Below are positions 22,729 through 59,432 of a stretch of DNA of 64,000 nt, in pieces. Position 1 is the first letter of the stretch. Each line of letters begins with the position of its first letter. Under the pieces are notes generated by a model, which saw only the letters and a list, made by a program, of their open reading frames with translations, made no database searches and was not told the origin of the DNA. The DNA comes from Candidatus Micrarchaeota archaeon (lineage in GTDB: Archaea; B1Sed10-29; B47-G15). A program made the translations under genes and the position numbers. The stretch is from the NCBI GenBank assembly GCA_003660975.1, contig QMVG01000001.1:32001-96000 (forward strand), read 5' to 3'.

Positions 22729-23775
22729 TTGGATGATATTAGCATGACAAACAAAAATGCTTTGCTTTTAATTGTGTTATACTCTGCCTTTAGCATTTTG
22801 TGGTTGTATGTATTCTCCATTACTGGCTTTTCGCTTTCGGACTCAGTTAACTTTAATGTCATGAGTAAAATTGTGGGTTCTATTAGACTTTTATTTTTGA
22901 TTGGCTTCTTAATGGCTCTCTCGCTTGTTACTTTGTCTTATTTTTCAGATAGGCTTGAAAGAAAAAAAGCCATCATATTCTCTATTGCTGCTGTAATACT
23001 GACATTGTTAATTTCTTCGCTCTTTTTCCAAAACAAAATGCAGTTTTTGTTGATGATGCTCTTTTACGGCCTAGGAAGTGTATGGGTATCATATCAGAAA
23101 AGTGAAAAGAAAGGTGCAAGCAGACGCATGAGAGATGGATGGAAGATGGCAAAAAAGATGACATTAAGCTTGGCCTTTGGTGCTGTTATTGTGTCTGTTA
23201 TATTTGTTAATATGAACGCAACATATTATGAGGACAGTTTTAAAGATTCCTTGCTTTCTCTTGTCTCGTCATTTGATGTAAGCAAAATGCTCTCTGATCC
23301 AGAGTTCATTGAGGAGATGGTAAAGGAGCAGATACCTGATTACCAGACGTTCAGGGAAGAGGCCTTGGCCTCTCAGGGTATAGAAAGCATAGATGATGTT
23401 AGGGAAAAGATAAGAGAACAGTATGAAAATCAGGCAGGTTGGGAGCAGATACCAGAAGACAGACAGAGAGAGATTATAGAAAACGCAACGCTAACGTCGT
23501 GGAATTTACTTGAGCAGCAAATAAATGAGTCATACCAGAATATGTTTGGTTCAGAAGCGTTAAGGTCCAGGATATCTGAGATGCAGTCAAAAATCTCCAA
23601 AGAGAACATAGGCAAAATAAGCTCTCAATTCATAGAAAAAATGCCCTTTATGAATATTTTAATAAAAGCTTTGCCATATGTTGTTGCCTTCATTTCTTTC
23701 TCAGCCATTACGCTTTTCGGCACCGTATGTGTAGCTCCTTTTGCCGCTGTGCTGAATTTATTGTTTAGGCGATAA
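22729..23775 (+). CDS. Membrane protein with large acidic helical loop, unknown function
   Basis: About 5 N-terminal TM segments, Glu-rich helical insert, C-terminal TM. Confidence 0.75.
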   Translation: MDDISMTNKNALLLIVLYSAFSILWLYVFSITGFSLSDSVNFNVMSKIVGSIRLLFLIGFLMALSLVTLSYFSDRLERKKAIIFSIAAVILTLLISSLFFQNKMQFLLMMLFYGLGSVWVSYQKSEKKGASRRMRDGWKMAKKMTLSLAFGAVIVSVIFVNMNATYYEDSFKDSLLSLVSSFDVSKMLSDPEFIEEMVKEQIPDYQTFREEALASQGIESIDDVREKIREQYENQAGWEQIPEDRQREIIENATLTSWNLLEQQINESYQNMFGSEALRSRISEMQSKISKENIGKISSQFIEKMPFMNILIKALPYVVAFISFSAITLFGTVCVAPFAAVLNLLFRR

Positions 23776-23808
23776 ACTATTTTAAGGATGGATGTCAAGA
23801 AATAATAA

Positions 23809-23883
23809 GGGCCCGTAGCACAGCTTGGATAGTGCGGCAGGCTTCGGACCTGCAGGTCGTGGGTTCGAATCCCACCGGGCTCG
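23809..23883 (+). tRNA. tRNA-Arg(TCG)
   Basis: Acceptor GGGCCCG/CGGGCTC; anticodon arm GCAGG-CTTCGGA-CCTGC; T arm GTGGG-TTCGAAT-CCCAC. Confidence 0.95.
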
Positions 23884-23897
23884 TTTGCTTAAGTGGC

Positions 23898-23981
23898 GCA
23901 GGGATGACGGAGTGGCCAAACGTGCTAGGTTCAGGGCCTAGTGGCTTAGTGCCTACGAGGGTTCGAATCCCTCTCCCTGCA
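23898..23981 (+). tRNA. tRNA-Leu(CAG)
   Basis: Acceptor GCAGGGA/TCCCTGC; anticodon arm CTAGG-TTCAGGG-CCTAG; long variable arm; T arm GAGGG-TTCGAAT-CCCTC. Confidence 0.95.
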
Positions 23982-24074
23982 TTAGGGACCGAAGGTCCCT
24001 ATTGAGGGCTTCAGTTTCGCTTAAGCCTTTAATACAGCAATAACAAAAAAGGCTTAAATCCCTCCCCCTGCATT
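23982..24074 (+). repeat. tRNA-3'-associated palindromic element, copy 1, plus duplicate of the tRNA-Leu 3' end
   Basis: TAGGGACC-GAA-GGTCCCTA hairpin; TTAAGCCTTT(24021-30)/AAAGGCTTAA(24048-57); 24057-24074 matches 23966-23983 at 17/18. Confidence 0.85.
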
Positions 24075-24144
24075 GCAACGTAGCTCGTTGCATCCGCAGG
24101 CGATCTTCGATCGCCTTTGCTCAAGCAAAAAAGAGGGAGAGGGA
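24074..24144. repeat. Run of palindromes after element copy 1
   Basis: TGCAACG/CGTTGCA, AGGCGATC-TTC-GATCGCCT, TTTGCT/AGCAAA, then AGGGAGAGGGA. Confidence 0.7.
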
Positions 24145-24167
24145 AGTTTTGGTGTCGGTGGTAAACT

Positions 24168-34339: not shown

Positions 34340-34341
34340 TT

Positions 34342-34469
34342 GTCCGTTGCGCCGGACCAACGCATGGGATCTTCGATCCCATATGCTGTGATTGGCTTTG
34401 AAAAAGCCGCGTGCGGCTTGCGGACATGGGATCTTCGATCGTCCGTTGCGCCGGACCAACGTATGGGAT
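34342..34469. repeat. GC-rich palindromic direct-repeat array behind tRNA-Gln
   Basis: 29-bp direct repeat 34342-70 / 34441-69 (28/29); CATGGGATCTTCGATC at 34363 and 34425; AAGCCGC/GCGGCTT. Confidence 0.85.
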
Positions 34470-34992: not shown

Positions 34993-35065
34993 GGGCCCGT
35001 GGTCTAGCGGTTAGGACACTGCCTTCACACGGCAGAGATCAAGGGTTCAAATCCCTTCGGGCCCA
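34993..35065 (+). tRNA. tRNA-Val(CAC)
   Basis: Acceptor GGGCCCG/CGGGCCC; anticodon arm CTGCC-TTCACAC-GGCAG. Confidence 0.95.
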
Positions 35066-35240
35066 TTTTTGCAAGCTTTTTTCACAGTTATCACAGAAAA
35101 AAGCTTATTTTTGCTTAAGCTTTTTCCATAGTTTTCACAGAAAAAAGCTTAGGTCGAAGACCATGACCCCATGGCATTTATTTCGCTTAAGCCTTTAGCG
35201 TAGCGATAATAGAAAAGGCTTAAATTCCTTCGGGCCTATT
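35066..35240 (+). repeat. tRNA-3'-associated palindromic element, copy 2 (expanded), plus duplicate of the tRNA-Val 3' end
   Basis: Two AAGCTTTTT/AAAAAGCTT hairpins, GGTC-GAA-GACC, TTAAGCCTTT(35187-96)/AAAGGCTTAA(35214-23); 35222-40 matches 35049-67 at 17/19. Confidence 0.85.
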
Positions 35241-48232: not shown

Positions 48233-48304
48233 GCCTCAGTAGCACAGCGGTAGTGCGGCCGCCTTGTAAGCGGCAGGTCGAGGGTTCGAATCCCTCCTGA
48301 GGCT
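48233..48304 (+). tRNA. tRNA-Thr(TGT)
   Basis: Acceptor GCCTCAG/CTGAGGC; anticodon arm GCCGC-CTTGTAA-GCGGC. Confidence 0.95.
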
Positions 48305-48401
48305 TTTATGGCCGGAGGCCATAACTTTGAGGCTTCAGTTTCGCTTAAGCATTTACCATAGGCAATAACAGAAAAGGCTTAAATCTCTCCTGAGGCTTTT
48401 A
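48305..48401 (+). repeat. tRNA-3'-associated palindromic element, copy 3, plus duplicate of the tRNA-Thr 3' end
   Basis: TTATGGCC-GGA-GGCCATAA; TTAAGCATTT(48345-54)/AAAGGCTTAA(48373-82); 48382-401 matches 48289-308 at 19/20. Confidence 0.85.
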
Positions 48402-48538
48402 ACTATATCTATAAAGCCCCAAACCATAAATGGGCCTTTCAGCAGAGGTTCTGAGCTCTGATTGGACAAAACATGACTACAAAGCCAACAACCAAAAGGC
48501 TTTTAAATTACAATCTTTTTTAATATATGCATAGTATC

Positions 48539-48574
48539 CCCGTGTTTGCCTGGGGCAACCCGGGCAACCACGGG
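48539..48574 (+). other. Strong GNRA-tetraloop hairpin upstream of the NYN gene
   Basis: CCCGTG-T-TTGCCTGGG-GCAA-CCCGGGCAA-C-CACGGG: 15 pairs including one G-U, one mismatch. Confidence 0.7.

Positions 48575-55425: not shown

Positions 55426-59432
<4,007 letters not shown>

Follow-up and report, generated by a model that had tools for sequence, protein, structure and literature searches.

Several described systems couple mobile or structured DNA to the 3′ part of tRNA genes. Casposons and other Cas1 integrases target tRNA 3′ ends and leave duplications of 14-15 bp, and it is against systems of this kind that a small non-coding hairpin module is set here. The module is found in a stretch of 64,000 nucleotides from a Candidatus Micrarchaeota archaeon (GenBank contig QMVG01000001.1, positions 32,001 to 96,000; 'the window' below means this whole stretch), where it follows complete tRNA genes and runs into a second, partial copy of the tRNA 3′ end. 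As in casposon and CRISPR integration, the insertion lies next to a tRNA 3′ end and is accompanied by a direct repeat of the target, but here both terminal inverted repeats and a casposase are lacking, the length of the repeat is greater and varies, and the arrangement is also found in Cas1-free genomes. Miniature inverted-repeat transposable elements (MITEs) and repetitive extragenic palindromic (REP)-like sequences are likewise multi-copy, non-coding, lineage-specific hairpins that occur in tandem arrays and vary in copy number; in contrast to these, the present module is confined to tRNA 3′ flanks (17 of 17 strict matches) and is coupled to the T arm and to a 3′-end copy of its own tRNA.

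Another parallel is tyrosine-recombinase integration of the SSV and pNOB8 types, together with the model of Sugahara et al. (2012; PMC3293823), which explains intron gain in Caldiarchaeum by recombination between an intron-bearing attP and an intron-less attB. Those systems and the present case have in common that a direct repeat of the 3′ part comes after an intact tRNA gene, and the model also shares with the present case one interrupted and one uninterrupted copy and a tolerance of mismatches between the two. Compared with tRNA-integrating elements, however, hardly anything lies between the repeats here (a hairpin of about 20 nt, or two small hairpins), no integrase is present, up to half of the sampled tRNAs are affected (in the relative G019, described below) and the interruption is a 35-45-nt hairpin common to many tRNAs. 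Bulge-helix-bulge (BHB) tRNA introns, for which transposition between Thermoproteales tRNA genes has been proposed (Fujishima et al. 2010, as cited in PMC10714607 and in the Asgard tRNA intron preprint 10.64898/2026.10.13.758758), resemble the present inserts in being related short structured sequences in different tRNA genes of a single genome at one cloverleaf position, the T loop. Unlike in those cases, the gene here is uninterrupted, the insert sits in a spare partial copy and no splice motif can be drawn by eye. The route by which introns arrive is still given as open in that preprint. Pervasive partial self-duplication of tRNA 3′ ends, without a recognisable recombinase, was not found described in full-text literature searches.

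The window belongs to a 1.33-Mb metagenome-assembled genome (MAG) of 130 contigs, referred to as G000 where genomes are compared, and contains 13 tRNA genes, all without an encoded CCA (ARAGORN). A first-pass annotation of the window had reported a shared core behind three of them, tRNA-Leu(CAG), tRNA-Val(CAC) and tRNA-Thr(TGT), and all three loci are indeed there, as a repeated, non-coding, tRNA-linked module on the forward strand. At the first locus, a complete and uninterrupted tRNA-Leu(CAG) gene (23898-23981; Rfam RF00005, 53.5 bits; T-loop AAT from 23966) is followed by a trailer hairpin, h1, with an 8-bp stem and a 3-nt loop (23983-24001), by a linker, a′, which resembles the 5′ strand of the T stem plus TTC with one additional base (24004-24014), and by the core (24015-24057), which consists of TTTCGC and a hairpin, called A, with 10-bp arms and a conserved loop (17 nt here, 17-18 nt across loci). 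The core gives way to b′ (24057-24074), a copy that takes in the T-loop AAT, the T-stem 3′ strand, the acceptor 3′ strand, the discriminator and two flanking bases. In the minimum free energy (MFE) fold of this locus, h1 forms and the partner of a′ is the T-stem 3′ strand in the downstream copy, the resulting stem enclosing the core hairpin (z -2.83; 2 of 200 shuffles were as stable). Since a′ pairs with b′, the second copy amounts to a whole T arm and acceptor 3′ strand, and its T loop contains the core. The A hairpin has nine invariant pairs across seven copies, and its stem is the only one in an RNAalifold consensus, in which it is invariant with 0 compensatory pairs (h1 was misaligned by MAFFT).

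At the second locus, a complete tRNA-Val(CAC) gene (34993-35065) is followed by two hairpins related to A, called B, each placed after a terminator-like run of five T (35066-35151), and then by a truncated h1, an a′-like linker and an A-hairpin core (35152-35223, with the core at 35182-35223); this A hairpin is identical to that at Val-GAC on another contig (C3). The copy at 35222-35240 differs from its tRNA by two C to T changes, with which G-U pairing would be kept. The third locus has a complete tRNA-Thr(TGT) gene (48233-48304), h1 at 48306-48324, an a′-like linker at 48328-48338, the core at 48339-48382 and a copy at 48382-48401 that includes four flanking bases. With flanks counted, the three copies match their own tRNAs at 17 of 18, 17 of 19 and 19 of 20 positions, exactly as had been reported; over the last 16 nt the figures are 15 for Leu-CAG, 14 for Val-CAC and 15 for Thr-TGT, and the Leu-CAG copy matches the last 16 nt of the Leu-CAA gene at all 16. 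The periods of 91 and 93 bp given earlier for the first and third loci are also correct, as is the description of their first hairpins, which in the fold have 8-bp stems and 3-nt loops of different sequence, whereas the period at Val-CAC is 173 bp because of the two extra B hairpins between gene and copy. All upstream tRNA genes have full-length ARAGORN and Rfam matches, so that the mature sequence is not interrupted as it would be by a BHB intron. There is no open reading frame (ORF) within the modules, which are 75-165 nt long, and a search of positions 23000-52000 against Rfam 15 matched the 13 tRNAs and no other family at gathering score.

The suspicion that the duplicates could be assembly artefacts, which the first-pass annotation had itself raised, is ruled out by an independently assembled contig of run X1, matching one in run X2, that covers positions 23700-24111 with 0 differences. 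Contigs of the two runs, which may both be the source sample, bridge tRNA, module and copy unchanged, break at repeats and contain no empty allele, and in two further runs, X3 and X4, the modules had no usable coverage; apparent 'joints' in them are cross-matches to paralogous modules of the same genome. The recurrence of the architecture in five other MAGs (G019, G030, G021, G013 and G007) likewise argues against an artefact.

Three copies turned out to be an undercount, as nine tRNA genes in the window's genome carry the hairpin module. When the last 16 nt of each of 48 ARAGORN tRNAs were searched for within 400 nt downstream, a copy with at least 14 matches was found at six, all of them module loci (14-16 of 16), and the remaining 42, which serve as a chance control, reached at most 11. 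The additional copies are those of Val-GAC (C3), Leu-CAA (C4) and Ala-TGC (C5), each with 16 of 16 matches. The statement that the core runs into a copy of the tRNA's own 3′ end holds for these six loci; Leu-TAG and Thr-CGT (both C4) have the module and no copy, the latter with module variants in an array of 2.6 units, and at Ile-GAT (C4) the module is truncated, ending before the core, with no usable copy. The copies are locus-specific in 5 of 6 cases, and seven aligned modules have a mean identity of 81%. In the genome-wide search that had been proposed, strict A or B hairpin patterns match at 17 places, every one of them within 300 nt 3′ of a module tRNA, and the A hairpin of Thr-TGT, missed by the strict pattern for one stem mismatch, is an 18th member of the family (a relaxed expression gave 115 matches and was too loose to use). 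B hairpins, with a T5 run ahead, stand in tandem at five module loci.

The proposed tie to a shared T arm was borne out as well. The hairpin family is found at 9 of 11 tRNAs with an AATCCCTY T arm and at 1 of 34 others (Fisher, 6e-7, in a table that leaves out four contigs with bacterial-type tRNAs), and the sole exception, Arg-TCG, lies merely 15 nt upstream of Leu-CAG. The modules fall into two subfamilies, one at tRNAs with a TTCGAAT T loop (Leu-CAG, Leu-CAA, Leu-TAG, Thr-TGT) and one at those with TTCAAAT (Ala-TGC, Val-GAC, Val-CAC, Ile-GAT), and this is the pattern to be expected of homology-dependent exchange, under which subfamilies should track the T-loop variant. Val-GAC, Val-CAC and Ile-GAT share a composite unit of two B hairpins, truncated h1, linker and core with one identical internal junction, beginning directly after the discriminator at all three. 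By reading, the ends of the module are not inverted repeats, as the variable hairpin on the left and the A-hairpin arm on the right are not complementary, and the direct repeat varies in length between 17 and 20 nt. Since practically one T stem is found at all nine targets, the window's genome alone cannot show that a′ was copied from its target.

Beyond this genome the module itself is scarce. A BLAST search with the module against the 40 nearest genomes returned full-length matches in its own genome only, and elsewhere matches to the tRNA-like end only. A pattern scan of metagenome contigs gave three loci, one of which (L022) is the orthologue of the C4 hairpin array, with 1 copy instead of 2.6, while the other two (L021 and L023) are single hairpins at which no tRNA was found. 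Longer, enzyme-encoding elements with the same ends, which the first-pass annotation had suggested looking for, were not detected in the own genome, in 185,579 species genomes or in metagenome and viral contigs, and the viral contigs gave 0 matches for three insert patterns.

What does recur is the architecture. None of the other genomes compared belongs to the same family as the window's genome, whose class comprises 31 genomes; in six sampled relatives, the tRNA flanks were searched for copies with at least 13 of 16 matches to the tRNA's own end within 450 nt, and in five of them the same architecture was found with other inserts. It is most frequent in G019 (same class, other family), where a copy was found at 15 of the 30 tRNAs whose flank is 89 nt or longer (five more have too little flank); at two of these 15 loci the sequence in between reads N. 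G030, of the same genus as G019, has copies at 4 of 11 tRNAs with enough flank, and G021, of the same family as G019, at 2 of 15, next to one false match that is simply the following tRNA. Among relatives in the same order as the window's genome, the counts are 2 of 17 (G013) and 1 of 12 (G007), and G022, of the same class, has none at 19 tRNAs. A directly repeated tRNA 3′ part next to a restored gene, as tyrosine-recombinase integration would leave it, is thus present at six loci in the window's genome and at half of those sampled in G019.

In G019 the copies are located at +59 to +163 and many are perfect (8 of 13 with 14 of 14 matches). The order is that of the window: a trailer hairpin, a 5-mer with (N)TTC or TTA, the insert, the remainder of the T loop, and then the T-stem 3′ strand, acceptor strand and discriminator. 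There are three insert types, each common to different tRNAs, bordered by TTC on one side and by TTCGAAT, TTCGGAT or TTCGAT on the other. The first of these, type i, has a plan in common with the window's core (TTC, YAG, a T run with C-rich bases, a hairpin ending in AAAAGGCTT and the T-loop remainder), and for this reason they are taken to be a single phenomenon in which the insert depends on the lineage. In its exact form the type-i pattern has 13 matches in 3 of the 31 class genomes, all of family f10, and for 12 of these matches a tRNA gene is no more than 200 nt away.

The T stems of G019 differ among tRNAs, and the a′ 5-mer varies accordingly. On average, 4.54 of its 5 positions pair with the copy at its own locus and 3.32 with copies at other loci, and none of 20000 permutations reached the observed total; an ungapped 8-mer comparison did not discriminate, and the pairing test was used instead. 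As a′ is target-specific inside the module, a fixed element with a staggered-cut duplication fails for G019. Furthermore, in G019 and G030 the repeat can extend by 12 nt or more into the trailer hairpin (for example at Arg-GCG, L070) and forms arrays, with whole units repeated in G030, and some copies are those of a different tRNA, as at G019 Lys-TTT, where a Leu-CAA-type copy is found with the block downstream of it, and at G019 Ser-TGA, which has a Val-CAC-type copy. At a tRNA-Leu of a further genome (G028; L014, about 1505-1680), a stretch of about 35 nt made up of the last 9 nt of the gene and the trailer hairpin recurs some 130 nt downstream, with no T-arm part.

An empty site of the kind that had been called for is also seen when the congeners G019 and G030 are compared. 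Thr-GGT has no module in G019 and 76 extra nt in G030, where the copy is reduced to AATCC, and the two genomes have different insert types at Arg-GCG. At Gln-CTG the module is retained in both, with a compensatory change in h1, and the copy is altered in both, by one transition in G019, where a′ has changed to match and pairing is kept, and by a 2-nt deletion in G030. The module is gained, lost or replaced over evolutionary time. Copies of the wrong tRNA, shared blocks and subfamilies that track the T loop fit recombination and gene conversion among repeats with a shared T arm, and a strictly conserved signal fits them less well.

The single Cas1 of the window's genome lies within a CRISPR locus on C4, not outside one as in a casposon, together with Cas2, Cas4, an array of 37-nt repeats and a Cas12f-like protein of 593 aa. 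This compact type V-like locus (C4:57114-62245, L031 7114-12245, outside the window; array at L031 9238-10334) is arranged in the order 593-aa protein (with Cas12f1-like TNB and OrfB_IS605 domains), array, Cas1, Cas2 and Cas4, and it resembles the miniature Cas14/Cas12f systems described in small archaea. It starts 0.65 kb downstream of the Leu-CAA gene, with 0.37 kb separating it from the last module there, and the Cas1 gene starts 3.9 kb downstream of the end of that gene. The only TnpB-like domain of the genome is that of the CRISPR effector. Three tyrosine recombinase (PF00589) genes are present, on C22, C124 and C14; C22 has a GC content of 53%, compared with 43% for the genome. Cas1 and PF00589 were both absent from all five relatives searched (G019, G030, G021, G013 and G007). 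Terminal inverted repeats with a duplication of fixed length, as in casposons, are not seen and, despite the multiple copies, neither is the autonomous parent element of a MITE.

Each locus is best described as an intact tRNA gene behind which lies a spare, incomplete copy of the gene's 3′ part, with a small, lineage-specific hairpin insert in the T loop of that copy. We tentatively read this as an att-like partial duplication holding a T-loop insert, at somewhat less than an even chance. The direct repeats would have arisen by one crossover, either site-specific or homologous, of the gene with DNA in which a copy of its 3′ part is interrupted, leaving one clean and one interrupted copy, or else by an equivalent partial tandem duplication. 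The model of Sugahara et al. is the most economical origin that can be named, and is held as tentatively as the reading as a whole; the donor, the recombinase and the recombination route, as well as the direction and order of events, are those that we infer on this model. The insert itself would be an intron-like, non-autonomous mobile sequence common to different tRNAs, which may persist because the spare copy, and not the gene, is interrupted, and modules would be exchanged and homogenised within a genome among tRNAs that share a T arm. Recombination between the repeats would yield either a clean gene or a T-loop-interrupted gene, and both occur in relatives. Such recombination among repeats would fit both the unit arrays and the copies that match a different tRNA.

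A number of observations weigh against the att-like duplication. The model demands like events at many tRNAs, with crossovers within only 16-25 bp, and donor DNA with an interrupted copy was not found in viral contigs in three pattern scans. G019, which is 96% complete and has the most copies of the genomes sampled, gave no match to Cas1, PF00589, reverse transcriptase (RVT_1) or Y1 HUH (Y1_Tnp) families, so that no recombinase was found in it. The a′ 5-mers of G019 were picked by eye, and in the window's genome, with its shared T stem, a′ could be a fixed part of a transposon. All genomes compared are MAGs. As regards a connection with introns, a BHB motif, with its two 3-nt bulges and 4-bp helix, could not be drawn at the junctions in the window's genome (by eye only), and the link to the interrupted genes of a more distant genome, G041, rests on a short hairpin, that genome not being among the 40 nearest relatives.

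An alternative, close to the first-pass annotation and in our view unlikely, is that a non-autonomous element of about 75 nt (h1, linker and core) was inserted 3′ of tRNAs by a trans-acting, T-arm-recognising enzyme, with duplication of a staggered cut of 17-20 bp. Part of the evidence is what such an element would leave, namely one module family with locus-specific copies at 5 of 6 loci that include 0-4 flanking bases, a strong target specificity for AATCCCTY T arms, an empty and a filled allele in congeners and, as the chief reason for taking it seriously, a composite unit with the same junction behind three tRNAs. What it does not accommodate is a locus-specific a′ in G019, a repeat that extends into h1 and forms arrays, copies mismatched to their tRNA, a variable repeat length, the lack of terminal inverted repeats with a left end conserved as structure only, two loci with module and no copy, the missing enzyme families of G019 and the lack of a longer element with these ends in any scanned set. 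From the idea of a mobile, tRNA-targeting element with target duplication, turnover, the tie to the T arm and the locus-specific copies can thus be kept, whereas a fixed element with staggered-cut duplication is not supported in view of the locus-specific a′, the repeats reaching into the trailer hairpin, the wrong-tRNA copies and the missing inverted repeats; in the window's genome itself, where all targets share one T stem, target duplication may still apply for that reason. Slightly less probable again is a conserved cis-acting part of the tRNA transcription unit, such as a stabilising or processing hairpin, a terminator or the next promoter, with selection maintaining the tRNA-end copy, for instance as a structure like a T arm that serves in processing or protein binding. 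Compensatory changes, seen inside the genome and also when the G019 and G030 orthologues are compared, maintain the pairing of h1, both the A and the B hairpins have conserved loops, the B hairpins come after T5 runs, many copies are perfect (the 8 of 13 in G019), and the core 3′ arm with AAT resembles a word like the TFB recognition element (BRE) and TATA box ahead of several ORFs (42 places, not scored statistically). Such a signal would, however, be present at only 9 of about 45 tRNAs, absent or replaced at orthologous loci of congeners, and made of insert families confined to single genome families (as type i is to f10); the copies decay (12 of 14 matches, deletions, copies of the wrong tRNA), the genes downstream lack a consistent common orientation, at least one of them, that after Val-CAC, has a stronger TATA-like box of its own, and no Rfam family matches.

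Independent scars of virus or plasmid integrations, in which attL and attR would start from the T loop and the elements would later have been deleted down to a few dozen bases, are quite improbable. They would account for a repeat that begins in the T loop in every case, but the remnants are homologous and equally long (75-77 nt at five loci), which independent decay would not give, there are no integrase fragments nearby, PF00589 is found in none of the five relatives searched and, in the window's genome, the three integrase genes are on contigs other than these, with flanks not inspected for modules. Lastly, off-target integration by CRISPR Cas1-Cas2 or by a casposase, with the tRNA end serving as a pseudo-repeat, could draw on the Cas1, Cas2, Cas4 and 37-nt-repeat array near the module-bearing Leu-CAA gene and on the superficial likeness of the unit arrays to repeat-spacer arrays. 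The 'spacers' are, however, conserved structured modules of 60-160 nt, as opposed to CRISPR units with a 73-76-nt period and a 37-nt repeat, the duplicated stretch is 17-20 nt and not 37, no PolB or casposon inverted-repeat structure was seen, and five Cas1-free relatives all have the architecture, so that this explanation is close to refuted and carries very little probability.

The att-like duplication leads to the question of introns. The T-loop position of the core is the same place as that of interruptions found in the tRNA genes of relatives, with the same short T-loop repeats on both sides. The Leu-CAG gene of G022, missed by both ARAGORN and Rfam, reads to us as interrupted in the T loop by 58 nt, hairpin first, with TTCGAA on both sides, and the Arg-TCG gene of G013 appears on our reading to be interrupted at the corresponding position. 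Among the 185,579 species genomes, the core pattern was found in one other genome only, G041, a MAG recorded as Candidatus Aenigmatarchaeota, where the scan gave 2 loci. There, 7 of 8 pattern sites are inside or beside sequences that read as heavily interrupted tRNA genes, with approximate exon borders, and two sites come directly after the T-stem 5′ strand, in an orientation opposite to that in the window. By eye, T-loop TTCG or TTCA has no pairing partner in the 4 nt that precede the copy's AAT bulge in the window's genome. Since no BHB motif can be drawn, the window's inserts are not called introns.

The splicing endonuclease does not offer a simple marker, as the type of EndA shows no clean correlation with the intron state. 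The window's genome, with its splicing endonuclease on C3 at around 70324-70584, and G019 have one domain match each, in a 175-aa frame, and G022 and G013 also one each, in frames of 198-199 aa, despite their T-loop interruptions. In G041, the tRNA genes of which are interrupted many times, two adjacent genes with the splicing-endonuclease catalytic domain are found (C98:6555-7508), and the same contig holds a tRNA-Asn gene with a hairpin in a T-loop interruption. An intron of another kind is present in the window's genome at the anticodon-loop position of tRNA-Thr(CGT) (C4:52945-53059), a gene mislabelled by ARAGORN; the intron has words resembling a C box (ATGATGA) and a D box (CTGA), as do C/D box guide RNAs encoded by introns.

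Further features adjoin the module loci. Behind the Leu-CAG copy there are two more hairpins (24074-24092 and 24096-24120) and an inverted, degenerate copy of a tRNA 3′ end with a T run (24127-24148), and blocks of 24074-24148 are also present at the Leu-CAA locus on C4. There, at about 56590-56615, the inverted, degenerate Leu tRNA 3′ end recurs, in both cases joined to a T/A run and to the beginning of a B hairpin, and at each of the two loci the variant matches its own tRNA. About 190 nt behind tRNA-Thr(TGT), a BRE/TATA-like word made of the core 3′ arm and two extra T is followed by a GC-rich, structured-looking stretch without an Rfam match (48494-48560). A second, unrelated family of small GC-rich hairpins lies behind Gln-CTG (34340-34400) and also behind Gln-TTG, Glu-CTC, Val-TAC and Gly-TCC on C1 and C2, with no tRNA-end copy (best, 10 of 16). 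CCA-encoding tRNA genes and bacterial-looking clusters on contigs C6, C96, C108 and C109 are probably contaminants in the MAG.

Repeated modules at tRNAs have a practical consequence, in that assemblies of these genomes break at tRNA genes. Indeed, many contigs of G019 (C23, C15, C13, C35, C26, the start of C10 and others) end exactly at the 3′ side of a tRNA, which is to be expected where such modules break the assembly.

Even without any link to introns, a partial self-duplication affects up to half of the tRNAs sampled in one genome with no recognisable recombinase. Beyond this, the class shows three states side by side, namely the clean gene, the spare 3′ end with a T-loop hairpin, and the gene interrupted in the T loop, and these give a concrete hypothesis of intron arrival that can be addressed by phylogeny and RNA. 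The loci might be unresolved intermediates in the gain and loss of tRNA introns, an extension that we regard as doubtful. A T-loop-seeking hairpin would first reside in a spare partial copy of the 3′ end; deletion between the two T-stem/TTC repeats would then turn it into a T-loop intron of the gene, and deletion between the two 3′-end repeats would remove it cleanly. If this were true, the loci would provide the first genomic footprints of how archaeal tRNA genes acquire non-canonical introns.

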